Below, piece after piece: positions 6,986-53,790 of a DNA stretch of 64,000 bases. A program made the position numbers and the translations under genes. Each line of letters opens with the position of its first letter. Position 1 is the stretch's first letter. The notes under the pieces were generated by a model. That model worked only from the letters and a program-made list of their open reading frames with translations, made no database searches and was not told the origin of the DNA. Origin of the DNA: an uncultured Christensenella sp. (GTDB taxonomy: Bacteria; Bacillota; Clostridia; Christensenellales; Pumilibacteraceae). Location of the stretch: contig CAJTTD010000011.1 of NCBI GenBank assembly GCA_910579205.1, forward strand, positions 4,417 through 68,416. Direction: 5' to 3'.

Positions 6986-7747
6986 CTACTTTATATCGCC
7001 GCGTATCGCCGCAGACGGTACGTACTTGCGCGCGATGCTCAAGTATTCGCGCATTGTTTCCTCCGTCGGTGCGGAAAGACTTTTGTCGGGAACGGTGTCG
7101 CGCATGACAAAATACTGCAAAAAATATTTTTCCGCGCCCGCTATCATTTTTGCCGCGTCCTCTATAGAGTAGGCGTCGAACAGCTCGGAAATAACGGTGG
7201 TGCGAAATTCGTAGGGTACGCCCGAGCTCATAATAATGGATACGGAGCGCATTATCGGCGAAATATCGAACCGCTCAGACGGCAAGCCCACCGTTTCCGC
7301 ATAGCGGTCGGGTGCGTTTTTTATATCCATTGCTATGTAATCGAGCAAGCCTTCGTTTATCAAGCTTTCGAGATTTTCGGGGAGATATCCGTTTGTATCG
7401 AGCTTTATCTTATAACCGAGCCGTTTGATATCGCGCAAAAATCTGTCGAGGTCGGAATATAGTGTAGGCTCGCCGCCCGTTACGCATACGCCCTCGAGTA
7501 TGCCCGCTCGTTTTTTTAAAAAGTCGAAGATCTCCGATTCGTCGTAAAATAATACGTCCCTACCCAATAGCTCGCTGTTATGACAATACGGACAGCGGAA
7601 ATTACAGCTCGGCACAAACAGCGTACATGCCGTATGCTCGGGATAATCAAGCAACGTTAGCTTTTGAATGCCGCTTATCTTAATGTATCTCTCCAATATT
7701 TCAACCGCCTTGATGCTTTTGATATAAAATATTATACATAAAACCAC
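6986..7747 (-). CDS. Glycyl-radical-enzyme activase, anaerobic RNR activase (NrdG)-like radical SAM protein
   Basis: It carries GIQKLTLLDYPEHTACTLFVPSCNFRCPYCHN (a CxxxCxxC motif) and VTGGEP. The track start is GTG 7747. A shorter TTG start at 7696, with an AAGGCGG RBS, is at least as likely. Confidence 0.7.
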   Translation of the reverse strand: MVLCIIFYIKSIKAVEILERYIKISGIQKLTLLDYPEHTACTLFVPSCNFRCPYCHNSELLGRDVLFYDESEIFDFLKKRAGILEGVCVTGGEPTLYSDLDRFLRDIKRLGYKIKLDTNGYLPENLESLINEGLLDYIAMDIKNAPDRYAETVGLPSERFDISPIMRSVSIIMSSGVPYEFRTTVISELFDAYSIEDAAKMIAGAEKYFLQYFVMRDTVPDKSLSAPTEETMREYLSIARKYVPSAAIRGDIK

Positions 7748-7812
7748 TTAAAAAAACAAGCGATTTTTCGGCGGTAGGAACGCGCGGCGGTTCGTAAGGA
7801 TATGGCGGGCTA

Positions 7813-8844
7813 CTATAAGCACAATGTGCGAAGCAGCTTTCCCAATTTTAAACGCTTGCCCGCGGACATATCGAGCCCTATCAAGCAATACTCGTTATGA
7901 TACGCGCCGCATACGCAATAACCTTGCTCGTGTTCGAAAAACGGGCGATCCGAATATTGCGAAAGAGTATGAACGGGCGGCGGAGTTTTTACGTCGAAGC
8001 CCTCGTCTTTTATTCGCGCCGCGTGTTTTGCGCACTTGGCAAACGCGTATGTCGCCGCGTCCCCGTCGGTAGGCGGCGCTATGCATTCGGTTATTTTCAA
8101 AAGCAGTTCGAGATTGGCTTTCGCCCGTTCGGTTATCTTGTCGGCGGGATCGAGCAGCGCGCAATCGAGCGCGGCTATGGCGTTATGCATTCTGTAATCG
8201 TGATTTTCGCCGTCCGAATAGACTATACGCGCAAAGGCTTTCGCCTCGTCCGAGCCGTCGCCGCATACAAGCGCGCCGCCGCCGCCCGATACCCTTTTGC
8301 AAAACGATATAACGCCGAGGTCGCCGTTGCTGCCGCACGGCTTGCCCTTGTATTTGCCGCCGAACGCGTCGCACGCGAGTTCTATCACGGAAACGCCGTA
8401 ACTCTTGCAAAGCGGTATCAACGCGTCGAAGTCTGCTACCGCGCCGAACGCATTGTCTATAACGACGGCTTTGGGCAGTTTGTTTTGCAGTTGCGCCCAC
8501 AAAAATGCGGTGTCGAGCGCGAGTTCGGATACGCAGCGCGTTGCGGGGTCGCAGTCGATAAACACGGGAACTCCGCCCGCATGCGCGACGGTGGAAATAT
8601 TCGTATAAAACGTATACGACGGAACAAAAACATAGTCGCCGCCTCGCACTCCGCATATGTGCAATGCCGTATGTAACGCTCCGTCGGCAGAACTCATGGC
8701 GACCGTATTTTTGCCGTATCGCTGTTTCAGTTCGGACTGCAAACGCGCAACATAATCGACTCCCGACATGGAATCGCACAGCGCGCCCGCCGCACCGCCC
8801 TTTCTGTCTATAAATATCATGCGTATAGTATGTGCAGTATGCAC
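7813..8844 (-). CDS. DegT/DnrJ/EryC1/StrS-family PLP-dependent aminotransferase-like protein
   Basis: Supporting motifs are SSADGALHTALHICGVRGGDYVFVPSYTF..AGGVPVFIDCD and ISFCKRVSGGGGAL. The start is GTG 8844; ATG 8820 is an alternative. Confidence 0.65.
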   Translation of the reverse strand: MHTAHTIRMIFIDRKGGAAGALCDSMSGVDYVARLQSELKQRYGKNTVAMSSADGALHTALHICGVRGGDYVFVPSYTFYTNISTVAHAGGVPVFIDCDPATRCVSELALDTAFLWAQLQNKLPKAVVIDNAFGAVADFDALIPLCKSYGVSVIELACDAFGGKYKGKPCGSNGDLGVISFCKRVSGGGGALVCGDGSDEAKAFARIVYSDGENHDYRMHNAIAALDCALLDPADKITERAKANLELLLKITECIAPPTDGDAATYAFAKCAKHAARIKDEGFDVKTPPPVHTLSQYSDRPFFEHEQGYCVCGAYHNEYCLIGLDMSAGKRLKLGKLLRTLCL

Positions 8845-11293: not shown

Positions 11294-12133
11294 CTATCGC
11301 TTAAAGTCTGGCGTATACTTTGCATCCGCCGAATCGAAGTCTTGAAAATATCCGTTTTTAAATCCGAGCGACATAGCATGGTTTGCCGCTATCTTGTACT
11401 CTATTTTTTTAAGCTTTGCGTTAGGCTCGCCCGTGCCGTTTGGCGTGAACTGGCTCATAAGCGAAATGACCGTATCCGCACCAAGATATTCCTTTATAAT
11501 ATCGAGCGCCTTTATCGAATTATCCACGTTTTCGGGCAAGACCAAATGTCTGACTATAAGACCGCGCTCGAGCGTTCTTTTCCCGTCCGCCGTATTCCAT
11601 TCGTCCGATACGGCTTCGCGCATGGCGACAAGCGCGCGAAGCGCGGTATCCTTGTAGTCGGAGGCGTTGGAATACCGTTTTGCCGCGCCGTCATCCGCGT
11701 ACTTGAAATCTGTCAAAAATACTTGCGTGAACATTGACGCGCGCCGTACTGCTTCTACCGTTTCGTAGCCCGACGTGTTATACACTACCCTATGCGGTTT
11801 TTTACACAGCGGTATCGCGCGTTCTATAGCCGAAAGCCACGGCGTGGGCGTTACGAGATCGAGAGAATACGCTTTGTCAAACAATGCTGCAAGCCCGCGA
11901 TCGTCATACTCCGTACCGACGGGCGTTTTGCTTATCGCCGCGTTTTGGCAATAAGAACATCCGAGATTGCAGCCGCCGAAAAACACCGCGGCGACTTCAC
12001 CCAAACACGGTTCTTCGTACTCGAACCGCTCTATAAATTTGTTTACTACGGCTTTTGCTCCGCAGCGGCAATACCCCGTTTGCCCGCCGTCGCGGTCCGC
12101 TCCGCACGCCCGCGGGCAGTCGTAACACTTCAT
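11294..12133 (-). CDS. PflX-like radical SAM protein (pyruvate formate-lyase-activase-related)
   Basis: The N-terminus reads MKCYDCPRACGADRDGGQTGYCRCG. FFGGCNLGCSYCQNAAIS supplies the CxxxCxxC motif. The start overlaps the DUF2726 gene stop (ATGA). Confidence 0.7.
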   Translation of the reverse strand: MKCYDCPRACGADRDGGQTGYCRCGAKAVVNKFIERFEYEEPCLGEVAAVFFGGCNLGCSYCQNAAISKTPVGTEYDDRGLAALFDKAYSLDLVTPTPWLSAIERAIPLCKKPHRVVYNTSGYETVEAVRRASMFTQVFLTDFKYADDGAAKRYSNASDYKDTALRALVAMREAVSDEWNTADGKRTLERGLIVRHLVLPENVDNSIKALDIIKEYLGADTVISLMSQFTPNGTGEPNAKLKKIEYKIAANHAMSLGFKNGYFQDFDSADAKYTPDFKR

Positions 12134-12705
12134 TTCAGCGCTGCCTTCAGCACCGTCTTTTTAACGGTCGCATAGCTTAGGTCTCCGTCCAACCAAAACG
12201 TAACGAGCGGGATACCTGCGTCCGCGCAAATTGCCGCTACCTTTTCGTCGCGCAGCTTCCTATCCTTGCGCAAGTGCGAACGGTCGTTAAGTTCGACGAG
12301 CAAAAGCGGCTCAAACGTGTCGCGGTCTACAAAGCAATAATCGCAAATGCGGAACAGTTCGTTTCTATACGAAGTGTTGGTCTTTTTATCTACCACGCTC
12401 AATAGCGCAACTTGGGGAACTACTTCGTACTTTTCGGGCGATATCTGTCTTAAAGTAAGCAAAAAATTATATTCGGGACGACTGATCATGTTTAGTTTGC
12501 GCTCGTACTTTGCATTGAGCTTTACCTTCTCTTTGGGCGTGTAAAACAAGCCCACGAGGCACAGCGCAATAAACAACATGCCCACGACTGTCATTATCCA
12601 AAACGTGTCTGCGGCGAACGCGCGAAAGAACGGCAACAGACTGAACGCGAAAAGCGTCAGCCCTATAAAGAAAAACAATACGTATAATGCTTTTTTGAAC
12701 TTCAT
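12130..12705 (-). CDS. Membrane-anchored DUF2726 (PD-(D/E)xK nuclease-like fold) protein
   Basis: Two N-terminal TM helices are followed by SRPEYNFLLTL...VVPQVALLSVV...ICDYCFVDRDTFEPLLLVELNDRSH...RDEKVAAICADAGIPLV, which is the DUF2726 pattern. Confidence 0.7.
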   Translation of the reverse strand: MKFKKALYVLFFFIGLTLFAFSLLPFFRAFAADTFWIMTVVGMLFIALCLVGLFYTPKEKVKLNAKYERKLNMISRPEYNFLLTLRQISPEKYEVVPQVALLSVVDKKTNTSYRNELFRICDYCFVDRDTFEPLLLVELNDRSHLRKDRKLRDEKVAAICADAGIPLVTFWLDGDLSYATVKKTVLKAALK

Positions 12706-12807
12706 TGTATATCACCCATAAAACCGTTAGCCGCTCTGCTGTCGCGGTCTCACACTGCGCCCATATCGGAACGACGCATTATCTAATATATGCCCGTCTT
12801 TTGTCTG

Positions 12808-14253
12808 TCAGTCTTGCGTATTGTTTTGCGGCGCATTATCTTCGCCCGTCGCTTGTGTTTCCGTTGCAATGTCTTCGGCTTGCGCTTCGCTTTGCGCGCC
12901 GCCGGCGGGCTGCCGTTCGCTTGACCGCGGAATGCGGAACACCGCATAAAACAGCGCGGACGCCGCCATCATTCCTGCGTGAGAATACCAGCATGCGCCC
13001 GCAATGTATTTAACGCTCTTCCCGTTGTCTTGCAAGCTCGATGTGATAGCCGCGGACGACGCTATAAGGGCTATCGACATCAAAGCGGCAACCACGGAAA
13101 GAAATGCGAAAAAGCCGTTATTGTCCGCAGCGTTCCTATATTGACGATCCAAAGCCAAGACGGTTACGGCTACCGAAACCAAACATGCCACTATGCCGAG
13201 AACATTCGCCGCGGCAAGCGCGCCGCCGGGGATCTTCAGCCCCGTAGTAAGCATTGCCGTTACCCATGAATAGTACGCCGTGCCCACAGTCCCGGGATAG
13301 TACAAATACCGCCCGCCCAGTCCGTTTACGTAAACGGTATACGACGGCATTGCGGCAAGCGCAAGCACCGACGCCGATATCGTGGCGGCTATCGCTCCGT
13401 TCTTTATCTTTACGGCAAGACCCGTCGTCTCGCACAATAGGCTTCGTGCAAGACCCATACAAAAATAAACTATCACGCTCAAACAAGCGAGCGCGAGCGG
13501 CGACGCCGCGGGCGGGAACATCGGATTGAATATGCACATCATCATTCCCGTGATCGACAGCACGGTAAATATGCGCAAAAATATCAAGCCCTCGCCGAAC
13601 TTCTTTTTCGTAGCCAACGCGACCGCCGCGAATACAAGCGCTATTACGGACGCGAGCATTATAAAAATATTGACGAGCGCATTGAGCATGCCGAGCACAC
13701 AACCGGCAAACAGCGCTTCGTAAGCTCCGACATTGTCCGCTTGCAATGCCGTTTCGAGCATATCGAGCGCTATCAAATTCATGCGTGAGAGATTGTCTGC
13801 AAACATGTCTTGAAAAGCGGCGCTGTTTGCGGAGACGCCTTTTTTAGCGGCTTGGTCTACGGTCGCTTGATAAATATCGCGATACTGCGCGCGCAAACCG
13901 TCGAGCTGCGCCTTTGCCGTTTGATACTTGTCGAGATCGGTCGGAATGCCAGTAGTTTTGCTTCTCAGCGTGCCCGCCGCGCCCAACGCGCCCGCCGCGC
14001 CGAACAGTTTAAAAACCGACTGGTGCACGCGCGTGTTTTGATACACGAGCACGTGCGCGCCTTCTTCTTTGTCGTTTGTACCGACCGTGTGCAGCACTTC
14101 CTTATTGGAGTAATACTGAAAGGGCGCAAAAAGCGCAACAAAAAACAAGGCGAGCGACAGAGCGATCACGGCGCAAATAAACAACACAGTGCTTTTTGCC
14201 GCCAAATTGCGCTTATCTAACAAACTCTTTGCCTTGTCTTTTATGCTTGACAT
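12808..14253 (-). CDS. Polytopic membrane protein, unknown function
   Basis: ATG start. The protein has one TM helix, then a ~130-aa soluble segment, then about 8 hydrophobic helices and an acidic, Q-rich tail. Confidence 0.6.
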   Translation of the reverse strand: MSSIKDKAKSLLDKRNLAAKSTVLFICAVIALSLALFFVALFAPFQYYSNKEVLHTVGTNDKEEGAHVLVYQNTRVHQSVFKLFGAAGALGAAGTLRSKTTGIPTDLDKYQTAKAQLDGLRAQYRDIYQATVDQAAKKGVSANSAAFQDMFADNLSRMNLIALDMLETALQADNVGAYEALFAGCVLGMLNALVNIFIMLASVIALVFAAVALATKKKFGEGLIFLRIFTVLSITGMMMCIFNPMFPPAASPLALACLSVIVYFCMGLARSLLCETTGLAVKIKNGAIAATISASVLALAAMPSYTVYVNGLGGRYLYYPGTVGTAYYSWVTAMLTTGLKIPGGALAAANVLGIVACLVSVAVTVLALDRQYRNAADNNGFFAFLSVVAALMSIALIASSAAITSSLQDNGKSVKYIAGACWYSHAGMMAASALFYAVFRIPRSSERQPAGGAQSEAQAEDIATETQATGEDNAPQNNTQD

Positions 14254-17645: not shown

Positions 17646-19025
17646 TTACTTATTAAGCATGTACTCAAAGCAATCGCGCACTTCGGTTTTAACCGTCCAA
17701 ACGGGCGATATATTTAAATTTTTCAAATACTTGCGGCGAGCGCGCAATATGTAATACAAAAATTTTACGGCAAGCAGCTTGTCGAAGTCGTTGATTTTAT
17801 CGACATTCTTCTTCGCGGCGTCGGAACAGTTTTCACTCGTTAAATATTCCAAAACAGACTGTCCGATATTTTTGCCGTCGGTTGCCACGCCGAACATACT
17901 GTTTACATAATCGTCCGCAGTCATGAAGATATAGTGCTTTACGTCTTCAGCAGTGGGCGCGCCCTCGCTGCTCCGCCCCATGAGTTTTACTATGCGCTTA
18001 AAATTTTTGTCCTCCGCCGAAAAGCCGAAGAACAAACAGTTATACCGCAAAAACGTGTCTATCTGCACCACATTGCGCCACTTATAGCTCGAATACGACA
18101 TATCGTCGTAACTGCGCTCGGACAAAATAAGATTGAGCGCCTCTTTACTGCACAATGCTTTCTTTATGCGCGGCTCTTTATTATATTGCTCTTGAAAATA
18201 CGGCACATATCCGTGAACGTGATAAACGACCGTACTATCGCATTCGTCGGCATACGACAATTGATTATCTATAAATATAGGGATCAATTTTTTATTGGGC
18301 TGTTTGCCCTCAATGTTTTCGTAAACGAATTCAAATGAATTATCGTAGTTATAAGTGAGCACACGATTGACAGCGGCTTTATCTACATATTCGCCTATAG
18401 CGTATAATAAATGATTTTTAAATTGGGGATCGCCTGTCATCGCTTGTTCGACGGATGTATTGTCATCGCCCTTTTTTCGCGCGGAATAATACAGTGATTT
18501 TTCGACTATGGTGTACAGCTCTGCGGCGGCGCGTTCTTTGCGTTCTTCCTTGCCGTATTTTCTGTTATCGGTACTGAATTCGTCGAGCATATTCTCGACA
18601 TACTGCGCCAATTCGTATAGGTCGTATTTTTCAAAACACCCGCCGTACTTACTTTTGCAAATATCAAACTCGGTCTTGTCTTTTATTTCTTTTTCTTTAA
18701 TTTTGTTTTTATCGATCAAAGAAGCATCGAAAATATTGTCGGCAAGGAAATGCCCCACTATTGCGTTTTTAAGCAATTCTTTCCATGTGGGCAAGCCGAT
18801 CGGCTCTCCGCACGACGTTCCCGCACCAAACACCATTGCCTTAGGTTCTTTGCCGCCAACTGAAAACCGAGCGGCAAAGGCTTCTCTATCCTCTGCCATA
18901 GGGAAAAGTTCTTCTTTAAGCAAGGCTATCGCATCGTTAAGCTCGGTTTGGTACAACGATTTTTCGCTTGGAGATAGAAACCCCAACAGCTTGGCAAAAA
19001 CCGAATCTTTTTCGTAATCGCTCAT
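17646..19025 (-). CDS. SIR2-like (SIR2_2 / defence-sirtuin type) putative NAD+ hydrolase
   Basis: The 459-aa product carries MVFGAGTSCGEPIGLPTWKELL, VLTYNYDNSFE (N226), VVYHVHGYV (H271) and CLFFGFSAEDKNFKRIV. The start overlaps the upstream stop (ATGA). The gene is AT-rich relative to its flanks. Confidence 0.75.
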   Translation of the reverse strand: MSDYEKDSVFAKLLGFLSPSEKSLYQTELNDAIALLKEELFPMAEDREAFAARFSVGGKEPKAMVFGAGTSCGEPIGLPTWKELLKNAIVGHFLADNIFDASLIDKNKIKEKEIKDKTEFDICKSKYGGCFEKYDLYELAQYVENMLDEFSTDNRKYGKEERKERAAAELYTIVEKSLYYSARKKGDDNTSVEQAMTGDPQFKNHLLYAIGEYVDKAAVNRVLTYNYDNSFEFVYENIEGKQPNKKLIPIFIDNQLSYADECDSTVVYHVHGYVPYFQEQYNKEPRIKKALCSKEALNLILSERSYDDMSYSSYKWRNVVQIDTFLRYNCLFFGFSAEDKNFKRIVKLMGRSSEGAPTAEDVKHYIFMTADDYVNSMFGVATDGKNIGQSVLEYLTSENCSDAAKKNVDKINDFDKLLAVKFLYYILRARRKYLKNLNISPVWTVKTEVRDCFEYMLNK

Positions 19026-21757
19026 TTTCGATCCCCATACAAGCGCAGCCAGTGCGCAAAAGCAAAATTGACATATTCGTTTCCGTTTATTTCGTTTTCT
19101 ATATCTTTAACGTCATAACCGATCTTTTGTTTGATCTCGTTGCATTTTTCACTATTAGCGTCAACGCAATTCTTTAAATAATCTTTAAGCCCGGCGATAT
19201 ACCTCCTATTCTTATAAGATATGTAGATATCGGTTATATCTTGTATATGGTCTTTTAACGCCACGGCATAAGCAAATGCTTCAGCTTCGCCTTTTGCTTC
19301 ATCTGCACCTTTTGTTTCAAGAAGATGAGGGAACATGATATCGCGGTAAAAGTCGCTTATATATTTCACTGCCGATTTTTCATCGTATTTAAGTTCGCAC
19401 ACATCTTTTACGACCCCGAGCCTTAAAATCATAAACAAATCGTATTGTTCGGGAGCATTGTAAAAGAACTCGACAAGACTGCGTTTTTCGTACAGCATAC
19501 ATAAAATATATCTGATAAATCCGTTTTCCGCTGCGTCCAATCCGGATGCCTTTATCGCCAAGCAATCGGCTACGCACTCTTTATAAAGCCCCGGCATGAC
19601 CTTTTCTATTAAGTACCTTGCCGATTGTGCAGGACTTCCGTTATTATTAAAATAATTTTCTATCGCGCACTTATAGATCGTAGCGACGTGCGGCTTGACC
19701 GACGTAGATGAAAACACTATGTCGTATAGCGAGTACGGCGCATCCGTTCCGCCGTCTATCGAGTTCATCGCTCGCGCGATTTCGGTCATCAATTTTTTAT
19801 TATAGACAGCAACCGCATTATTGTCTATGCTGTCGTCTACTATATTCCCACAAATATCGCCGTTTATATCGTTCACCGTTTTTTCGAGCGCATTTGCCAA
19901 TAATATCGACGCGTTATACCTAAGGTCGATCAAATATTCATCTTTTATTTGCTCAAAATTATTTATGTAAACGTGTTTTAAGTACGTAACGACACTATCA
20001 ATATATTTGTCAACGATCTCTTTATCGATGTCTCGTATCAATTTTTTACGCAAATCAATTAACGACGTACGTATATCGCCTAAAGTTTCGGGCAACCTTT
20101 CGCCGTTATGCTCAACGCTCTCGGCAGACTCGACGTCTTCCAAAAATTTCTCGAACGCGGCGCTTTTATCAAATTGGGAATAACCGCTCTTTAGCTCGGT
20201 TTGCATAATAAGATTATCGAACAGATTTTTTGCTTTGATCCGCAAAATTTCTTCGATAACTGTATCATAACAGTATTCGGCAAAAATGTTGAACAATCCG
20301 TCCAAATACATTTCGGCTCGCTCATCTCGGCATTTTTCGCCGCGAACATGGAAGAACTCGTGAGCTATCCTATATATAGATCCCGTGATGTCCCATAGGC
20401 TTGCCTCGGGCACGGTTACGGCGATAGGGCGTTCTATAGGTTTATTGTCGGTTTTGAGAATATTCTGGTTATAATTGAAAAGGTCTTGATTTGTGATAAT
20501 ATCCACGCCGCCGCTTGTCGCAAAGTTCAATATGGGATCGTATTTATTTTCATCACTATAAATATCGTTCCACATAAAAAGCATGTCGTTATACGCGTAC
20601 AACAACTTTATCAAACCGCCTACGGCATGCCTTATTAATCTTTGATCGTCATAAAATGCGTGCTCGGAATGCCACAGGGGACTTAGCGCTTCGCGAACGG
20701 CGCAAATGCTCCCTTCTACAAAGCTCGAATATTCGTTGATATTTACCGGATCGCCGCTGTTTTTATACATGATCTCGCAAGCAATGCCGTCTTTACCGCT
20801 ATTTATATTTTCTATTATTTTCGTCAAAGAAGATAAAAAGCATCTCAAAAACGCGCCTAAAGTTGACACGATATCGTGGCTGTGTTCCGATTGCGATATC
20901 TGATTATATATATTCAAAATATCGTCCATTGCGTTTTGAACTCGACGATGCGCTTTGTGATCGCCGTGCGCCAATTTTGTATAAGCCGCATTAAAAGATT
21001 TTTGTATCTCTTCCCACAACTGATTTCCGTCATCCGAGTTTGCGCCGTCGTTCTTATTATTAACGTCATCGGGATCGATCAGTTTTATAATATCGTCGTC
21101 TTTAGGATCTTTATTTATTGTTAAGATCCGCTGCTCTAAAAATACTTCAGCATCGCAAACGCCCATTCTAATTTTCTTGAGAAAATTGTCTATCTCATTT
21201 TTTTGGGTCGGATCGCGTTTGACATAATAGACCGCCACGGCTTCGGAACTTCCGAAACTCAAATACACCGCGCAGCCGCAATGCGGTTGGATCTTGCATT
21301 CCTCTTTTGCCTTATCGACTTGATGATGTATAGCGCCATTGACCCAATCATAGTAATTCTCTACCATTTTTTGATTGGTGTGCTCCATGTTGCTATTAAC
21401 AAATTCTTTTATACGCTCATCTGCAATGTTATAAAACACCACGGTAAAATCATAATCGTCATATTTGGATTTTTCTTTTTTGTTTACGGCTTTTACAATA
21501 TCCGCTATAAATTTAGTGGACTCCGATTCTTTAGGCACGCACAAATCGACGGTATAGCCGTCTACATACGCATCCTTTTTGAATGAGCTGCGATATCCGT
21601 GCCATTTATCGAGCAGCGACACCTCTACGCGGTCGTAATGATCGATTATGTCTACATCATTATAATAGTCTGCAAAAGTGATATAAAAAGAGCCGTCCTC
21701 CGTTTTGCGTTGCATCGGAGAAAGGCTCTTTCTTAAAATCACTTTAAGCAAATCCAC
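19022..21757 (-). CDS. 911-aa protein with an HExxH(+24)E zincin-like motif; function unknown (candidate sensor/protease partner of the SIR2 gene)
   Basis: Long uninterrupted ORF. The start is GTG 21757, with GAAAAGG 11 nt upstream; ATG 21715 is an alternative. The motif IAHEFFHVRGEKCRDERAEMYLDGLFNIFAEY spans residues 464-495. I see no Walker A motif. Confidence 0.7.
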   Translation of the reverse strand: MDLLKVILRKSLSPMQRKTEDGSFYITFADYYNDVDIIDHYDRVEVSLLDKWHGYRSSFKKDAYVDGYTVDLCVPKESESTKFIADIVKAVNKKEKSKYDDYDFTVVFYNIADERIKEFVNSNMEHTNQKMVENYYDWVNGAIHHQVDKAKEECKIQPHCGCAVYLSFGSSEAVAVYYVKRDPTQKNEIDNFLKKIRMGVCDAEVFLEQRILTINKDPKDDDIIKLIDPDDVNNKNDGANSDDGNQLWEEIQKSFNAAYTKLAHGDHKAHRRVQNAMDDILNIYNQISQSEHSHDIVSTLGAFLRCFLSSLTKIIENINSGKDGIACEIMYKNSGDPVNINEYSSFVEGSICAVREALSPLWHSEHAFYDDQRLIRHAVGGLIKLLYAYNDMLFMWNDIYSDENKYDPILNFATSGGVDIITNQDLFNYNQNILKTDNKPIERPIAVTVPEASLWDITGSIYRIAHEFFHVRGEKCRDERAEMYLDGLFNIFAEYCYDTVIEEILRIKAKNLFDNLIMQTELKSGYSQFDKSAAFEKFLEDVESAESVEHNGERLPETLGDIRTSLIDLRKKLIRDIDKEIVDKYIDSVVTYLKHVYINNFEQIKDEYLIDLRYNASILLANALEKTVNDINGDICGNIVDDSIDNNAVAVYNKKLMTEIARAMNSIDGGTDAPYSLYDIVFSSTSVKPHVATIYKCAIENYFNNNGSPAQSARYLIEKVMPGLYKECVADCLAIKASGLDAAENGFIRYILCMLYEKRSLVEFFYNAPEQYDLFMILRLGVVKDVCELKYDEKSAVKYISDFYRDIMFPHLLETKGADEAKGEAEAFAYAVALKDHIQDITDIYISYKNRRYIAGLKDYLKNCVDANSEKCNEIKQKIGYDVKDIENEINGNEYVNFAFAHWLRLYGDRK

Positions 21758-21805
21758 TATTACATACCTTTTCTTACGTTGTTTATTTCGGTCGCTTTAA
21801 TATAA

Positions 21806-22000
21806 TTAAATCACATCGTCAAAAGCGCCGATCCTACCGATATGCAATTCGTCATTTTTAGCGCTTACCGACATATTTTTACGCGACGTATAAGTATCTG
21901 TATCCGCTATTCTGTCATGGCAGCTTGACTTAATAAACATAGACCCGCTGTTGCTTGTATAGCGTAAATTGGCTTCGTAATTTTTTGCAAACTTTTGCAT
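21806..22000 (-). CDS. Possible 64-aa small protein at the head of the SIR2 cassette
   Basis: The ATG-initiated ORF lies between the predicted promoter (22166-22195) and the 911-aa gene. GGAG sits 12 nt upstream, which is long spacing. It is AT-rich like the cassette, and no motif is recognised. Confidence 0.3.
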   Translation of the reverse strand: MQKFAKNYEANLRYTSNSGSMFIKSSCHDRIADTDTYTSRKNMSVSAKNDELHIGRIGAFDDVI

Positions 22001-22165
22001 TTTTTAAATAAACTCCATTAGAGTAAAAATTTCAGCTCCAACCGTCATCGCGCATTAGAGCGAACTCGATTTGTTCACGAGCATCCTTGTGTTTGTGCAC
22101 ACGGCTTCACGCACTCGGGCGTTTCTTATAAAAAGAAAAACGCGCGATCGCGCTATAACTTGGTT

Positions 22166-22195
22166 ATTATAACACACGCACTGAAGCTTTGTCAA
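22166..22195 (-). promoter_or_regulatory. Strong sigma-A-type promoter facing the SIR2 cassette
   Basis: Minus strand reads TTGACA (22195-22190), an 18-nt spacer, then TGtTATAAT (extended -10, hexamer 22171-22166). A 14-nt palindrome CGCGCGATCGCGCG (22141-22154) followed by a T-run lies just downstream. Confidence 0.45.
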
Positions 22196-30968: not shown

Positions 30969-31027
30969 AGCCGTTAGTTGAAATACGGCGCGAAAAAGCT
31001 CTTGCGAGCAAGCTTTTTCACTTGTAT
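30969..31027. repeat. Intergenic two-hairpin repeat, copy 2 (partner at 5801-5859)
   Basis: Same element as at 5801-5859. GAAAAAGCT pairs with AGCTTTTTC, and GCCGT with ACGGC. It lies 36 nt past the stop of the last RiPP-cluster gene, so it is probably the operon terminator. Confidence 0.7.
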
Positions 31028-31063
31028 TATAACATTCAACGCGTATAAAAGCAAGCTTTTATG

Positions 31064-31822
31064 CTATGCGCAAGGTTTAAAATACAGATTATACGTAACG
31101 GCTTTGTTTTCGGATATTGCCGTTTGAATAAACTGCAACTCGTAGCCCTTTTTTATTACCGAATTTAATTTATCTTGGACCGATCTATCGAAAAACTCGC
31201 TCGGCAGATCGTAGGCTCGTTTCGGCACATCGTATTCCGCATAGAATTTAAGCTTGAATGCGTCGGGGGCAAAATCGGGCGCTGTCATATGCAAGCGCTC
31301 GTCCCCGCAGCGCGGATAAAAAAAAGCACTGCTACAGCCCAAAACGGAGACTACCGCATCATCTATAAATTTTTCGGCAAAGCACGTCGAACCGCTTTTT
31401 TGCAGTCGAAAATACGGGCATACTGCGACGCAGCGTTTGCCCGTAGCGGCGTCTACTCTTATTCCCAACACATGGTTATCGTATGCCGTATTGCTTTCGG
31501 ATAAAAAGTTCTTTAACATTTTCACTTTATCGGCACGGTAGTATGAATGTTCCGACAAAAGATATGACTCCAATTCATGCAAGTCGGCACTGCGCAAAGA
31601 AAAATCGTATTTAACGAATTTATCGCCTTCTTTACCTGCGGAAAAACAAATCAGCTTTTTTTCGGTTACTGCCCGATCGAAAAATTCTATACCTATGCTC
31701 GCGATCGGCCGAACGATTTTATAATATATTCGATCGCGCACTATAAAGCCATCCTCTACCGTGATCGCGTAGAAGTCTATATCGTTCCTTTTACATTCCG
31801 AAACGTCTGTAAATTTATTCAT
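31064..31822 (-). CDS. 252-aa protein of unknown function, last gene of the RiPP-like cluster
   Basis: ATG start 22 nt after the precursor stop. AT-rich. No catalytic motif recognised, no signal peptide and no TM helix. Confidence 0.6.
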   Translation of the reverse strand: MNKFTDVSECKRNDIDFYAITVEDGFIVRDRIYYKIVRPIASIGIEFFDRAVTEKKLICFSAGKEGDKFVKYDFSLRSADLHELESYLLSEHSYYRADKVKMLKNFLSESNTAYDNHVLGIRVDAATGKRCVAVCPYFRLQKSGSTCFAEKFIDDAVVSVLGCSSAFFYPRCGDERLHMTAPDFAPDAFKLKFYAEYDVPKRAYDLPSEFFDRSVQDKLNSVIKKGYELQFIQTAISENKAVTYNLYFKPCA

Positions 31823-31844
31823 TTATCGCTATCGCAAAATTATC

Positions 31845-32048
31845 TTACCAAAAATCGGTGTTGGCAGTGCAGCGCGCCGTACAGTTGTCGTCGCAACTTC
31901 CGCTACAAGAATCGGCGCAACCGCTTATGCAGCTGCCGCTACACGAAAACGCGCACGAAAAAGACACGCCGCATGTCGCCTCACATAGCTTATTGGAAGT
32001 GATGCGCGCTTTTATCTTACACAAAAGCTCCGGATCGATCTTAAACAT
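31845..32048 (-). CDS. Cys-rich RiPP precursor peptide (67 aa; 11 Cys, eight of them at Cx3C periodicity)
   Basis: An AAAGGAGAA RBS lies 6 nt before the ATG. The sequence is MFKIDPELLCKIKARITSNKL-CEATCGVSFSCAFSCSGSCISGCADSCSGSCDDNCTARCTANTDFW. It starts 41 nt downstream of the radical SAM/SPASM gene. Confidence 0.8.
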   Translation of the reverse strand: MFKIDPELLCKIKARITSNKLCEATCGVSFSCAFSCSGSCISGCADSCSGSCDDNCTARCTANTDFW

Positions 32049-32089
32049 TATATTCTCCTTTGATTTTATTTACAAGCAAGTAGTTTTTG

Positions 32090-33205
32090 CTACTGCAAGT
32101 TTTGAATATGTACAATGCTCCGCAACAACGCTTGCTCAGTGTCTTTATCGCACTTAAGCGTCCCGCGCGCCCATTCAATAGCTTTTAGCTTGGCGTTGGC
32201 TGCAAAAATCATTTTATACAATTTGCACCGCGCTTTATCCGGTTTATAAAGATCTCCGCAGCTTAAATAATTACTGCCCAAACAGAACGGACATATCTTC
32301 AGATAATAACAGTCCGCGCATTCACGGTCGAGCAAATCAATGTCAAGTTCATCATGGATATTCGCTTGCTCTGTAGTTATGGCTTTTGATCCGGCGGAGA
32401 TAGGAGCAAAAAGTTGACAAGGATACGCTGTTCCGCGCATGTCGTAACACACCATAGCAGTACCCGTGCCGCAGTATTTTTTTATCTTTTCATTCGACTG
32501 CGTGTCGTAAGCGAGTCTTTCTATTTTAAAATCGAGCATCGAACATTTTTTTATATTCGGGTCGTCCGCATACCAAGAAATAAGATCGTTCAATTGTTCC
32601 GCCAGCGTCTTTACGTTCGATTCGGACAACCAGTCTACCATATATGCCAAATTGCACGCCACCGTAAAACCCAAAGACGTTAAATACTTGACGCTCTCCG
32701 AAAAATACGGCATGGACAGTTCGGACACGGTCATTTTTATCGGCTGTTCCGGATAGTTTTTCAAAAAGAACGCTAAATCTATTTTATCGAAGCTATCCGA
32801 TCGATTTAAATTATGGGCGACACGGTTTCCGTCTAAGCTTAACCCTACGCTGAAATTTTTCCGCGCGCTCAACCACTCGGCAATATCCCCGTGTACCAAT
32901 GTGCCGTTTGTAGTTGCAAAAAACCGTATTTTGCCTTTATAGAACGACATGACATAATCGTAAACTTGCTTTATCAGATCGAAATTCAAAAAAGGCTCGC
33001 CGCCGAAAAACTCTATATAAGTGTTTTCTTTGGGTTTTCCGTAAATAAGCTCTCGATCTATGATCTGCTTGGCGCGATCAAACGTCATGTCAGATGCGGA
33101 CTTGTTGTGTTCGTAACAGTACACGCACGACAGATTGCATCGTTCCGTTACTATCAAAGATATGGTACGCGTGTTAGACTCGTTCATTTCGGTTGTTATA
33201 GCCAT
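32090..33205 (-). CDS. Radical SAM / SPASM-domain peptide maturase
   Basis: ORF 32090..33301. Start set to ATG 33203-33205 (MAITTEMNES), which overlaps the upstream stop (TAATG). The radical SAM motif is CNLSCVYC. The C-terminal Cys cluster CGTGTAMVCYDMRGTAYPC...CADCYYLKICPFC fits a SPASM domain. Confidence 0.85.
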   Translation of the reverse strand: MAITTEMNESNTRTISLIVTERCNLSCVYCYEHNKSASDMTFDRAKQIIDRELIYGKPKENTYIEFFGGEPFLNFDLIKQVYDYVMSFYKGKIRFFATTNGTLVHGDIAEWLSARKNFSVGLSLDGNRVAHNLNRSDSFDKIDLAFFLKNYPEQPIKMTVSELSMPYFSESVKYLTSLGFTVACNLAYMVDWLSESNVKTLAEQLNDLISWYADDPNIKKCSMLDFKIERLAYDTQSNEKIKKYCGTGTAMVCYDMRGTAYPCQLFAPISAGSKAITTEQANIHDELDIDLLDRECADCYYLKICPFCLGSNYLSCGDLYKPDKARCKLYKMIFAANAKLKAIEWARGTLKCDKDTEQALLRSIVHIQNLQ

Positions 33206-34290
33206 TATACAGACACCTTGCCGTCCGAGCATTGAACGATACGCGCTTGCGTGCCGACATTCCATCCGTCGCCTTTTTGCACCGCGCGCCATTCGTCGCA
33301 TGTGCCGCCGTACGATATGCTTTCAAGCCCGTCGCAATCGTAAAAAGCATACGCCCCTATCTCCGACACCGTTTGCGGTATGTATGCGTTTTTTATTCCG
33401 TCGCAATCGTAAAAAGCATAGCTTGATATTTTTTCCAGTCCGTCGTCAAGTATCGCATTAACCAAAAGCCCGTCGTACACAAACAGATCGTGCGTGTAGT
33501 AAGTCGGATTGCAGTACTTATCCGCAAAACTGATTTGACACCATTGCGTAGCAGTGCCGAGATAAACGACGTTTTTGAGCGCACCGCACTTTATAAACGC
33601 TTTTTTGCGAATGTTTTTTATCGACGAGGGGATGGTAATACCGTTCAACCCGCCAAAGCTTCTGAAAGAGCATTTGCTTATACCCGTTACGGGCTTTCCT
33701 TCCACTTCGGCAGCGACAGTCAAATATCGCAGACCTTTCCCGCTGTACCCCACAAGCTCCATTTCGTCTGCGTCCGATTCTTTCAGCAAACGCTCGGTCA
33801 GACTGTAACCCGCGTACATACCGTTCTCATACAAGCGCGGCGTAGAAGCGCCGCTGTCGGCAAACCACATCGTACAGCCCAAAATCGTGATAGGTAGCGA
33901 CACAGTCAGCGCGCATACGTTAGCAACGCGCATAAAACCGCCTTTTGATAAAGCTGTATCTATGATACGGGAAGTAAACAATAACGCCATGCCTATCCCC
34001 GTCATTATCCAAAACAGCTCCGATACGGCAACGGTACAAATTGCACCGACGACACATGAAACACCGCCGACTATCGCGCCTATTACCCCGAATAATGTCG
34101 GATCATCGCACTTACCGAATTCGATACAACCTATCACAAGCAATAAACACAGAACCGCTCCGCCCATAACTATCCACGGCATCACTTTTCCCGTGATCGC
34201 GGCGTCGTAATAATAAGATATAAATACGATCGATATTACGGTCAACACGACTGCGTTAGATGTTCCCAAAATGCGCTCTGCTTTATTCAT
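33205..34290 (-). CDS. Polytopic membrane protein with a C-terminal BspA-type leucine-rich-repeat domain
   Basis: About 5 N-terminal TM helices are followed by LRR_5-like repeats (ITIPSSIKNIRKKAFIKCGALKNV; LEKISSYAFYDCDGIKNAYIPQTVSEIGAYAFYDCDGLESI). No clear SD sequence is present. Confidence 0.65.
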   Translation of the reverse strand: MNKAERILGTSNAVVLTVISIVFISYYYDAAITGKVMPWIVMGGAVLCLLLVIGCIEFGKCDDPTLFGVIGAIVGGVSCVVGAICTVAVSELFWIMTGIGMALLFTSRIIDTALSKGGFMRVANVCALTVSLPITILGCTMWFADSGASTPRLYENGMYAGYSLTERLLKESDADEMELVGYSGKGLRYLTVAAEVEGKPVTGISKCSFRSFGGLNGITIPSSIKNIRKKAFIKCGALKNVVYLGTATQWCQISFADKYCNPTYYTHDLFVYDGLLVNAILDDGLEKISSYAFYDCDGIKNAYIPQTVSEIGAYAFYDCDGLESISYGGTCDEWRAVQKGDGWNVGTQARIVQCSDGKVSV

Positions 34291-49002: not shown

Positions 49003-52000
49003 TCAAGCCTTTTTTGCGCCGTACAGCGAAGTGAAGTATATCGTTGCGCCGTTGAGGTTCATGAATCGGAATTTGAAAAGCTCCATTCTATGTTGCGCCA
49101 AGCCATTGCCTTGCCATTGCGTCATGTCGTTGAATTTATCGGCGGCAATGGTTACCTTGGTCCACTGACCTTTTACCAAACCGGTATCGCCGGTCCACTC
49201 CGTGCCCGACATCGCAGACTTACTTGCATAATCCAGCTTGCCCGTCGCATTTTCGGCGTCCGTCCATACGTAGAAGTACAGCTCGGAGTACTTGCGGATA
49301 TCGCGAATATTGACTGCCGACGCATCGACCGATACGCTGATATCGTCTTTGTTTACGATAAGTTTTGCGGAGCCTGTTTTATCGACCGTCGCGTCCGTGC
49401 CGTCATAATTCTTTTCGGTAGACCACGTACCCGATCCGATGCCTTTGCTGACGTCGATGACTTTATTATTATAATCGCTGTACTTTGTAAGTTTAACGGA
49501 CGAGATGTATACGGTATCGCCGACGTTAAAGCCCATTAAACGGAACACCCACTTCCCACCGTAATAGTCGGGAGTATTAGAGGTATTCAATCCTAACTGA
49601 ACCTTCGTCCACGCTCCTGCTGTCAAGCCCAGATCGCCGTACCAATGGGCGCCCATTTGCTTGTCGCTGCCCGTGGTGTATGCGTAGAACTCGATCAAAT
49701 CGTAATCGCCGAAGTCGAACGCAAGATATGCGTAGTCGCCGTTATCGTCTGTTTCTTTGACCGTGATCTTTGCAGAGCCTATGTCGGCACCGTGCTTTTG
49801 CTCGGTCGTGTACTCAACGGTCGCTTTATTCCCGTTCGCTTCCAAAGTTTTCGACGTGAACTCTTGACTGGGCGTAAACACCGTGCCGGTGTCGGGTTGC
49901 AAACGATATGTAACTATCTTGTTCGCACAGCCGTCGGCTTTGTAAACGGCATTGATCACTTGCGCGCCTTCGTAATCAAGAGTTACCGCGCCGTTGATCA
50001 CCCGAATAGTTTGACCGACTTGATTTTCTACGCGATCGATGGATATCGTCTTGCTGTCGTTTCTGTTGCCTAACCAGTCCGCAACATACGCGTCCGTGGG
50101 TATCTTAAACTCACTGCCGGATTTGTAGAATATAGTTTCTTGCGGTCTGTCTATCACGATCTCGCCGTAGTTCTTGAACACGTCGTTTCTGTACAAGTCT
50201 ACTTTCTGCTTGCCGGTAATGAACTCGATATTGGAAAGAGTTCCGTTTACGGGGCCTTTACGTTCGCCAATGCCGAACGAGTTTCCAGTTACTTCAAATC
50301 CCGCAAATGACACAGTGCCGACATGCCAGCCTTGATCGGTCGTTAAGTGGCGGATATACATGTCTATCTTGTCGCCTTGACGGACGTATACCACTCTTAC
50401 GGGACTTTCGGACGAATTGCGCAAGACTTGCCGCAACGCTTCGGGCAACTCCTCCACGATACTCATTTGTTTCCAATTACCGCCGTATCCGCCGAATTTG
50501 CGCGAGCTGTTGTCGCTGTGCATTTCCACGCCGAGGATCTGATCCGATCCGCCGACGTATGCGCCAAAGTAGTTCCAGCCCGTTTTAGGCAAAGTCATGT
50601 CGTAACGCAATATCCACTGATCGCCTTCGCCTACTTTGTACACTTGGGCGTCGTTTCCTACGGTCTTGTAGCCGTCGTCTACATCGCCCCAAGTCATGTC
50701 GTCGGCGTTAGTCGCGAACTTGACGGAAACGGTGTGCTTATCTTTGGTCGCTATAAACATGTTGCCGCCGATGGGCTTGCCGTCAACTACGAAGCAGTCG
50801 AATATCTTGCCCGAAGGGATAGTGCCGTTGTATTCGAGCTTGATCTCCTGTTCGCGGTTGTACACTGTTTTGCCGTCGGCAGTAGCTATGCCCGCGCCCA
50901 GCTCTACGGTGGATTTTTCGTAAGGCACGCCGTACAGCGAAGTTACCCACATAACGCTGCCCGCTTTGCCGCCTTCTACGCTGTAAGCAAACTGCTTTGC
51001 GCCGTTTTCCCAAACGCTCTTTTCGTCTATGTTCTGCGGCGCTTTACTTCTGTTAAACGATACCTTTACCCATTTATAAGCCTCGGGCGCGGTATCTCTG
51101 CACCACCATCCGCCTATATTCTTGAACGCGTTAGCGTCGGTAACGTATACATAGAAGTATATCTCTTTGTAATCATCGAGATTTTCGGAGGCGGCGGCAA
51201 TGGCATTGTCAAAGGCAAACGCGCATTCGCCTTCGTTTAACGTTACTTTGAGCGTGCCGTCCGTTTTGATCGCGCCGTCTACGCCGTTGTAAGTAACAGC
51301 GGTATCGTACTCGATCTTACCGGGCTTCCATTTGTTTTCCTTTTGATACACAACGCCGCCGTTGCCCGTGATAACGCTTACGTTGTTGATCTCGACGTTG
51401 CTGCCGGCGACGCGAGCGGCAAATACGGGTTCTACGCTGTGCGTGTCGCCGTCGGCGGTAAACGTATTGCCGTCGATAGCAGTTCCGTCCACTTTAAAGC
51501 CTTTGCAATACTGCCCGTCGGGCGCTTTGCCGTTCCAAACCACGGTAACGCTGCTGCCTTTGGCGACGTCTATCGTGTCTTTATTCCCTTCCGCAGTAGC
51601 AATGCCTTCGGCAAGAGTTACGGTGCTCTTTGTAGCATATACGGCGGCTACGTCGTGCGTAGTCTTTGTAACCGTCATGACGTTGCCGCTTATGGGCGTG
51701 CCGTCCACGGTAAGGTGCAAGAACATTTTGCCTGCGGGCGCGGGATCGGGAGTAAGCGTTACCCAATCGCCGAGCGACACTTGCGTGAGATCTGCTTTAC
51801 AGTCGGTAAGATTCAATTTAGCAACGTACTGCGCCATATACAGCGCGACTTTTTCCGCGCCGGCAACACCGCGTATATTAGTATACGTATGTTCGCCGAA
51901 GGTGTTGTCGCGACGTTCGCACAGACCGAATGTGTTATCAACGCCGAGCGAAGCGTGGTTTACCGTAGTAAAGTATTGCGTTTGCCCGTCTTTCGTGAAG

Positions 52001-53769: not shown

Positions 53770-53790
53770 ATCATTTTCTCCTTTATTCAA

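Follow-up and report, generated by a model that had tools for sequence, protein, structure and literature searches.

Bacterial immune systems repeatedly use enzymes of the SIR2 family that destroy NAD+ (NADases) as their effectors, and the partners of these enzymes sense cues as different as cyclic ADP-ribose (ADPR) isomers, a phage tail tube protein, DNA ends, guide RNAs and dITP. Each new SIR2 partner has so far revealed a new way of sensing infection. A SIR2 gene that stands beside a large protein resembling none of these partners raises the question of whether the pair is a variant of a named defence system or a module of its own. Such a pair is found on contig CAJTTD010000011.1 of an uncultured Christensenella sp. 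(assembly GCA_910579205.1), in a stretch of 64,000 nucleotides (positions 4,417 to 68,416 of the forward strand) that was analysed as a whole and is called the window here. It is made of two minus-strand open reading frames (ORFs), coding for a SIR2 protein of 459 amino acids (aa) and, upstream of it, a 911-aa partner with an HExxH motif (Table 1). An initial annotation had taken the pair for either a new two- or three-gene system or a split DSR-like variant. In our analysis the three-gene option was supported, as the position of a small upstream ORF proved constant, and the split-DSR option was not, as no similarity to DSR proteins was found. The locus is real and conserved, a three-gene SIR2 cassette that has apparently not been described before, and because it recurs as a fixed unit without match to the searched defence-system resources, its predicted function is probably that of a new phage-defence module.

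The SIR2 protein and its 911-residue partner

The 459-aa protein showed a match to Pfam SIR2_2 (PF13289) with an E value of 2.5e-12 and 47.6 bits, against a curated cut-off of 24.5 bits. The four signature stretches recognised in the initial annotation, with N226 and H271, were all located in the product, at residues 65 (VFGAGTS, followed by GLPTWKELL at 77), 223 (LTYNYDNSFE, N226), 267 (VYHVHGYV, H271) and 331 (LFFGFSAEDKNF). The only PADLOC match was to ThsA1 (2.4e-6, 24.5 bits) and was partial, with the strongest segment at profile positions 157-224 of 478, while NCBIfam returned nothing meaningful. The Pfam scan of the cassette proteins gave no SLOG, TIR, PIWI or STAND domain, and the SIR2 protein was also found to be without an APAZ or ATPase domain.

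A model of the SIR2 protein was built by AlphaFold2 (AF2) with 19 homologues (predicted local distance difference test, pLDDT, 81.8; predicted template modelling score, pTM, 0.83) and compared with the PDB using Foldseek. All 50 of the 50 matches at E<=0.001 were defence SIR2 structures (ThsA, SIR2-HerA/Nezha, SPARSA, DSR2 and KomC), and no classical sirtuin was among them. By sequence, the SIR2 family profile reached KomC with an E value of 4e-7, aligning GAGxS, TxNYD (with the catalytic Asn) and GxSxxDxN. The proposal that both catalytic residues would align in a profile held for N226, which stands against the Asn of the KomC TNYD, but not for H271, which lies outside any aligned hidden Markov model (HMM) segment, so that the catalytic His is assigned by motif and spacing only. 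G67-A-G-x-S71, N226 and H271 are invariant in 19 close homologues and in 19 SIR2 proteins linked to a partner gene; in the latter, GAGxS, YN[YF]D, HxHG and GFSxxDxxF[KR]R[IL] are kept in 19/19 proteins, down to ~22% identity. The C-terminal 85 residues are modelled as helix-strand-helix. Judged by sequence and model, the 459-aa product is a SIR2_2 enzyme of the defence type in which the NAD+ pocket and the catalytic Asn/His are intact, and it is predicted to be an NAD+ glycohydrolase, that is, an NAD+-depleting effector.

The partner itself was without match in Pfam, PADLOC and NCBIfam. Its HEFFH, at residues 466-470, is its sole HExxH, and, in line with the initial annotation, neither it nor the SIR2 protein contains a Walker A motif ([AG]xxxxGK[ST]), with no TIR or PIWI domain in the Pfam scan. 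Word-indexed searches for the partner returned only three close alleles, and the family came to light only when 1.84 billion representative proteins were searched exhaustively by HMM, which gave 112 partner clusters at E<=1e-3, most of them of 830-1090 aa. The partner and 49 homologues were without match to PADLOC v2 models. Pfam scans of 50 family members, of the HMM consensus and of an artificial 'insert-deleted' core assigned no family; a single member gave a marginal match to MPTase-PolyVal (E 0.0094). PDB sequences searched with 3- and 50-sequence partner profiles yielded no match and no peptidase. The use of AlphaFold and Foldseek that had been suggested for both proteins placed the SIR2 protein among defence SIR2 folds and left the partner without a match, its AF2 model (pLDDT 77.5, pTM 0.83) finding nothing, peptidases included, in the PDB and BFVD. 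On these sequence searches the partner represents what appears to be an undescribed family.

Across partner alignments of 50 and 57 members, which share ~15-27% identity with the window protein, R272, Y389, G416, E451, H466, E467, H470, G473, R477, R480 and E727 do not vary, and conservation is at least 90% at D731 and A734. The largely helical model arranges in order a beta-strand (443-449), the HExxH helix (457-472, local pLDDT ~96) and a later helix with E727 (710-738, local pLDDT ~95), with the invariant E451 preceding the HExxH along with the strand, and ~256 residues of variable helices lying between the HExxH and the Glu helix. In a motif-level comparison with the AF2 model, this order of secondary structure is compatible with a zincin fold. 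HExxH…ExxxD is the motif pair that defines the gluzincins, MEROPS subclan MA(E), to which thermolysin, neprilysin and M48 belong. The partner carries a gluzincin-like (HExxH…ExxxD) signature, and the putative zincin assignment is one at motif level and not at fold level, because Foldseek gave no match in the PDB and BFVD.

No transmembrane segment was found in the partner, which is predicted to be cytoplasmic. An N-terminal alpha/beta domain (~1-200) is joined through a disordered linker (199-241) to a conserved core with the gluzincin-like signature. Within residues 1-200 (window 21158-21757), K10, D42, W52, P57, G169 and D172 are near-invariant. Weak hints on this domain came independently from Foldseek (chlorite dismutase 3dtz, probability ~0.4) and from Pfam matches of the consensus (GYD, E 0.048; Chlor_dismutase, E 0.096). 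We take a ferredoxin-like alpha+beta barrel as a weak lead, not as a finding; the domain may be ligand-sensing.

It was also considered whether the partner could be a non-catalytic scaffold of a defence system, resembling a DSR2 sensor in trans, with SIR2 activated allosterically or by oligomerisation through a phage protein and with the HExxH…E site serving as a structural metal site or a relic. Among ~50 homologues at ~20% identity, it is not just the ligand His but also the catalytic-type E467 that is invariant, as is E727, with D731 nearly so, and a purely structural metal role is therefore hard to hold. A binding sensor would nevertheless be expected to look much like this protein, which is large, mainly helical and interspersed with hypervariable segments. 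Neither profile nor fold searches connect it to a peptidase family, and the 1:1 translational coupling of the genes suggests a stable complex. Given further that the partner resembles DSR proteins neither in sequence nor in fold, and that a scaffold would leave the conserved small upstream ORF unexplained, we consider this explanation unlikely.

Linkage of the cassette genes across related loci

Both minus-strand genes and their ATGA overlap were confirmed as first annotated, in ORF coordinates and at the junction. The latter reads ...AAAATGAGC, the SIR2 start ATG (19025-19023) and the partner stop TGA (19024-19022) sharing four nucleotides (nt). SIR2 homologues at 33-45% identity were each preceded, with a 4-nt overlap, by an 859-1010-aa protein without a Pfam domain, and these proteins were homologous to the 911-aa partner with E values of 1e-33 to 1e-86. 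A search from the partner side led to distant representatives with the same arrangement. Both family profiles were then applied by hmmsearch to 42 loci, including 21 metagenome loci retrieved by partner patterns. In every locus whose contig continues past the partner 3' end, a SIR2 homologue was found directly downstream on the same strand (three of the 42 contigs end within the partner gene), and the co-occurrence asked for in the initial annotation is thus strict. The gene order, with overlap or close abutment, recurs in every related locus examined.

A few loci depart from this layout. In one lineage, seen in L019 (8326-8538) and L020 (3711-3923), the partner is intact but all that is left of the SIR2 gene is an N-terminal piece of 70 aa reading LGAGIDVPLGLPDWNRLL, a natural loss of the effector. 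Both genes of L040 are broken by many frameshifts, and the short, rearranged L041 contains a partner fragment and a SIR2 gene on the minus strand beside a second partner fragment on the plus strand. These exceptional loci do not contradict the pattern of a SIR2 gene downstream. The extra genes beside L019 (ATP-grasp, radical SAM) are not recurrent in the other loci.

Pairwise-identity matrices of partner and SIR2 proteins from 15 loci were correlated with r = 0.93, a value reached in 0/2000 Mantel permutations, and the partner was consistently the more divergent of the two. As far as sequence comparison can tell, translational coupling, strict synteny and co-divergence tie the genes together in all related loci examined. 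The carriers are metagenome-assembled genomes of gut Clostridia, including Christensenella and Clostridiales; the narrower patterns used in the scan of the genome collection matched only two GTDB species, and taxonomic breadth is under-sampled.

This linkage weighs heavily on one explanation for the SIR2 gene, namely a housekeeping sirtuin acting as a protein deacylase with a protease as its incidental neighbour. Housekeeping genes do flank the cassette in the window, as this explanation would have it. The defence-only Foldseek matches, the strict synteny and the co-divergence with the partner effectively refute it, however, and it is equally at odds with a Pfam match to SIR2_2 rather than to classical SIR2, with the absence of classical sirtuins among the structures at E<=0.001 and with a foreign composition and rapid divergence relative to the flanks. 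We regard it as scarcely tenable.

The coordinates of the initial annotation span the two genes; the unit reaches further upstream, to a small ORF and a promoter (Table 1). The small protein is hydrophilic and rich in Ser, Thr and Asn. Its ORF is exactly 64 codons long in three alleles, with a ratio of nonsynonymous to synonymous rates (dN/dS) of 0.13-0.35 and substitutions biased to third codon positions, and public assemblies annotate it as a gene. In 19/20 other loci examined, an ORF of 51-106 aa on the same strand ends 15-154 nt upstream of the partner, and because a small ORF lies just upstream in nearly every locus, the cassette is probably a three-gene unit. A recognisable Shine-Dalgarno sequence precedes about half of the small ORFs, about the same share as for the partner genes. 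Across the loci the small ORFs fall into conserved subfamilies, several of which, though not all, are linked by phmmer, and in three of these subfamilies, the types of the window, L001 and L009, residues S25, S26 and H28 are invariant (Ser-Ser-x-His). Within the clade of the window the amino acid identity of the small ORF is 84-91%, versus 66-71% for the partner. The small protein was without match in Pfam, PADLOC and NCBIfam. A helix-turn-helix (HTH) repressor of the CapH-like kind was rejected, as no HTH profile matched and the composition does not fit. The small ORF probably represents a genuine third component that evolves very fast.

The same order of genes would also suit a peptide-processing pathway akin to those of ribosomally synthesised and post-translationally modified peptides (RiPPs), in which the small ORF would supply the precursor, the zincin-like protein the maturase and the SIR2-like protein a modification using NAD+, for example ADP-ribosylation. 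Sirtuins have been proposed as ADP-ribosyltransferases in conflict systems (PMC9503650), and the hypervariable ORF of this size that directly precedes a putative peptidase at almost all loci, together with the short Ser-Ser-x-His motif of three subfamilies, is consistent with such a pathway. Yet the trio has no conserved companion genes for transport, immunity or further tailoring, the proteins are cytoplasmic, the small proteins have neither a conserved-leader/variable-core pattern nor Cys-rich cores, and the SIR2 model matches only NAD+-degrading defence enzymes (Foldseek, E<=0.001). A RiPP-like function for the trio is, in our judgement, highly improbable.

Genomic setting, allelic exchange and neighbouring genes

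The GC content of the cassette is 0.39-0.43, versus 0.52-0.54 for the flanks, and the cassette is a compositionally foreign low-GC insert beside rpmH. Downstream of it in the window lie the core genes rpmH, rnpA, yidD, yidC and jag, and upstream a divergently transcribed PP-loop ATPase gene. The same chromosomal site next to rpmH is occupied in three related genomes (window 17646-22000, L005 7758-12124 and L042 2514-6889). When the window was compared with L005, which has identical synteny, the flanking genes showed a synonymous divergence (dS) of 0.10-0.11 and dN/dS of 0.02-0.04, and the cassette a dS of ~0.49, 4-5x that of the flanks. Residues 1-180 of the partner are flank-like in this comparison (dS ~0.1) and the rest of the gene has a dS of 0.4-0.9, the mosaic breakpoint lying within the partner gene; from this contrast we read the locus as a recombination mosaic in which one fixed site has received divergent alleles by exchange. 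Overall, purifying selection acts on each of the three genes (dN/dS 0.13-0.38), and the variability of the partner is concentrated in residues 181-270, 540-665 and 785-875, its catalytic core being conserved. The cassette is horizontally acquired, foreign in composition and exchanged between alleles.

At other loci the trio was found beside resolvases, serine recombinases, transposases and a TIR protein with leucine-rich repeats (LRRs). Among 111 neighbour proteins from 17 loci, matches were obtained to AbiO, Nhi, Avs5, RdrB, mad3 and PDC-S31/S60 models and to recombinases and transposases, as a raw count. In the Christensenella-type locus L001 (10966-15323), the trio and a permease are followed by a TIR-LRR protein, RtcB and a Schlafen-group-3-like helicase, in what looks like a further defence-type cluster. 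A phage-borne origin of the cassette was rejected, no partner homologue being found in IMG/VR viral contigs. Six predicted viral contigs from that collection (L043-L048) carry solo SIR2 genes of 402-409 aa (ORFs at ~7383-8612) that match the cassette SIR2 profile with E values of 1e-30 to 1e-35; no partner homologue lies near these distantly related genes.

Mobility of this kind brings to mind a toxin-antitoxin-like addiction module or a device of competition between elements, in which SIR2 would be the toxin, neutralised by the partner and/or the small protein, and the cassette would be maintained by post-segregational killing instead of phage sensing. The cassette is a foreign, exchangeable insert, recombinases and transposases adjoin several loci, the genes are tightly coupled with a small, labile-looking protein encoded first, and copies with a truncated SIR2 gene keep an intact partner, all of which would suit addiction. 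A 900-aa antitoxin with an invariant hydrolase-type site would be atypical, though, three related genomes carry the cassette in the chromosome at one fixed position beside rpmH, and the viral contigs hold no partner homologue (plasmid collections were not searched). Addiction as the function is thus improbable to us, if somewhat less so than peptide processing. It is in any case compatible with the defence function preferred here, because many toxin-antitoxin-like modules also act as defence systems.

The coordinates of the cassette are collected in Table 1. Its promoter can be aligned in L042 over the -35 and -10 elements, and L005 has a different strong promoter at the same place. Immediately 3' of the TTGACA/TG-TATAAT elements (22139-22195) lie a palindrome, AGCGCGATCGCGC, and a U-tract, which are kept in L042 and replaced in L005 and could, by their sequence, form a terminator-like attenuator or an operator. 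The cassette leader folded no better than shuffled sequence (z = -0.08) and had no Rfam match. These two results, and the coding behaviour of the small ORF, led us to reject a riboswitch or other structured RNA in the leader or around the small ORF.

Table 1. Positions of the cassette and of its main features in the window
Feature	Position	Strand	Basis or remark
Promoter (TTGACA, 18-nt spacer, TG-TATAAT)	22166-22195	-	12/12 sigma-70 matches, extended -10
GC palindrome AGCGCGATCGCGCGTT, then U-tract	22139-22154	-	directly after predicted transcription start
Small ORF, 64 aa	21806-22000	-	ends 48 nt before partner start codon; probable third component
Partner gene, 911 aa, undescribed family	19022-21757	-	GTG start; HMM family, AF2 model
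HExxH codons, H466-E467-F-F-H470	20348-20362	-	H466/E467/H470 invariant; helix 457-472
ExxxD codons, E727-C-V-A-D731	19565-19579	-	helix 710-738; E727 predicted third metal ligand
ATGA overlap, partner stop/SIR2 start	19022-19025	-	4-nt overlap also in L001-L004, L009, L010, L017 and others
SIR2_2 gene, 459 aa, predicted NAD+ glycohydrolase effector	17646-19025	-	ATG start; Pfam PF13289, AF2/Foldseek
SIR2 GAGxS codons	18813-18827	-	motif position
SIR2 N226 codon	18348-18350	-	motif position
SIR2 H271 codon	18213-18215	-	motif position
SIR2 GFSxxD, S336 codon	18018-18020	-	motif position
SIR2 GFSxxD, D339 codon	18009-18011	-	motif position

Elsewhere in the window, a DUF2726 protein (12130-12705, -) overlaps a weak radical-SAM-like ORF (11294-12133, -) and is adjoined by a family-less protein of 481 aa (12808-14253, -). 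The genes at 11294-14253 are taken as core genes outside the cassette, because they are conserved in the flanks of relatives. A second low-GC patch (31000-33300, GC 0.42-0.44) contains a 403-aa radical-SAM protein (32090-33301, -) that matches the prokaryotic-viperin models of PADLOC (E 5e-13) in its radical-SAM core only, over profile positions 2-108 of 257, and an unannotated 252-aa ORF (31064-31822, -); the next gene (33205-34290, -) codes for BspA-type LRRs. The patch may be another accessory or defence islet. Lastly, a 1595-aa ORF (49003-53790, -) is without a Pfam match at E<=1e-4.

Proposed mechanism and comparison with known systems

Taken together, these observations somewhat favour a defence module with a SIR2 NADase as its effector. 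In its fuller form, as an abortive-infection-type cassette of three genes under its own strong predicted promoter, consisting of the small protein, a gluzincin-type sensor or regulator and the SIR2 NADase, we hold the proposal to be evenly balanced. A complex with the partner, which may also include the small protein, would keep SIR2 inactive in the uninfected cell. The variable regions of the partner (181-270, 540-665 and 785-875) or its N-terminal alpha/beta domain would read a cue derived from the phage, and this cue would switch on the metallopeptidase activity of the partner. The partner would then cut either the small protein, which would serve as inhibitor or adaptor, or SIR2 itself, and so free the NADase activity, and the collapse of NAD+ would abort phage replication. 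Anti-phage function, NAD+ depletion and protease activity are what we infer for the cassette. The proteolytic gating step is put forward tentatively, as a possibility that falls clearly short of an even chance, and the complete proposal of a metalloprotease-gated NADase module, found described nowhere, in which a giant gluzincin senses infection and cleaves the small protein or SIR2, is rather doubtful.

Several points weigh against this proposal. NADase activity, protease activity and phage resistance are all inferred. No profile or structure search ties the partner to any peptidase family, and motifs and predicted topology are the sole basis of its zincin assignment. A disordered pro-peptide is not evident in the SIR2 model, where the extensions at both termini are well folded. 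The subfamilies of the small ORF cannot be aligned with one another, so that over the family as a whole the third genes can be called homologous by position only. The neighbours of the cassette in the window are housekeeping genes without a defence island, and the count of defence-type neighbours at other loci was made without a background control.

If the protease reading were true, the cassette would hold the first zincin-controlled NADase, as far as our searches show, and a compact model for the proteolytic arming of a metabolic effector. Gut Clostridia, whose defences have been little explored, would contribute a three-component switch and a new enzyme fold, and zincins would join the proteases that arm bacterial immune effectors, with a logic of bait or inhibitor, protease and NADase. 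Even with a different function, the strict three-gene linkage defines an unannotated family that is worth naming.

Among known systems the cassette was compared with DSR1/DSR2, Thoeris, Kongming, SIR2-HerA, Avs5 and SPARSA, and with proteolytic defence pairs. The PADLOC run that had been proposed did not assign the pair to a named system, the partial ThsA1 match of the SIR2 protein being its only yield; PADLOC-DB dates from 2023, with later-named systems outside that release. Full-text literature searches found no system of SIR2 and a zincin. The earlier conclusion that the pair is not Thoeris, DSR1/2, SIR2-HerA or Avs5 was upheld, as the defining features of each are missing here.

DSR1/DSR2 share with the cassette the defence-type SIR2 fold, DSR2 structures being among the Foldseek matches at E ~1e-4, and a SIR2 domain accompanied by a large helical non-ATPase moiety of ~900 aa; by analogy, NAD+ depletion would be the expected outcome. 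DSR is, however, one polypeptide with an N-terminal SIR2, whereas the cassette has two genes in all loci with SIR2 last, and its partner is without sequence or fold similarity to DSR (no PADLOC match and no match to a DSR2 chain in the PDB). A split-DSR variant was rejected on this lack of similarity, DSR2 structures being present in the PDB library searched. The cassette further differs in its invariant HExxH and E727, with D731 nearly so, and in the small gene upstream. DSR2 is described as built of SIR2, MID and an alpha-solenoid C-terminal domain (PMC11850899), and a zincin signature lies outside that architecture.

ThsA of type I Thoeris is the best structural match of the SIR2 protein (7uxt, E 1.3e-6) as well as its only PADLOC match, and shows the same arrangement of catalytic Asn/His. 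The SIR2 protein of the cassette is without the C-terminal SLOG (or Macro) signal-binding domain of ThsA, only SIR2_2 having been found, and a scan of the cassette and of ten ORFs around it gave no ThsB/TIR domain, so that a TIR-made cyclic ADPR isomer is unlikely as the trigger. KomC of the Kongming system is the only solved structure that could be reached from the SIR2 family by sequence profile. KomC is described as a protein of 264 aa that forms a filament with the pyrophosphatase KomB and is activated by dITP (PMC13454610). No gene resembling KomA (deaminase) or KomB (HAM1-like pyrophosphatase) is present at the cassette, where the neighbours are housekeeping genes. With SIR2-HerA (Nezha), Avs5 and SPARSA the cassette has in common the SIR2 effector fold and a two-gene or fused logic of sensor and NADase. 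It differs from SIR2-HerA in that its partner is without a HerA/FtsK-type ATPase (no Walker A, and no Pfam or PADLOC match for it or for 49 homologues), from Avs5 in having no STAND NTPase (Pfam, PADLOC, Walker A) and from SPARSA and other short prokaryotic Argonautes (pAgo) in having no APAZ or MID-PIWI pAgo partner (Pfam, PADLOC).

With the gluzincins (thermolysin M4, neprilysin M13 and M48) the partner shares a helical HExxH and a downstream ExxxD helix, although no profile or fold match to M4, M13, M48 or Lit was obtained. The spacing from HExxH to Glu is ~20 residues in M4 and ~60 in M13, and that of the cassette partner, ~256 residues, is far above either. Lit is a zincin-like peptidase acting as an abortive-infection effector (PMC3506569), from which the partner differs in being 3-4x larger. 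Operons that pair a protease with a toxic effector are known as protease-activated pro-effector pairs (trypsin and nuclease; gasdermin and protease). For the pair of a trypsin-like protease and a metallo-beta-lactamase (MBL) nuclease, the effector is described as a proenzyme that its partner protease activates (PMC12799240). Those pairs employ a serine or cysteine protease with a nuclease or pore-former, whereas the cassette would combine a putative zincin with a SIR2 NADase, the cleavage being hypothesised. Belonging to none of the systems compared, the cassette would work like the sensor-plus-SIR2 abortive-infection systems.

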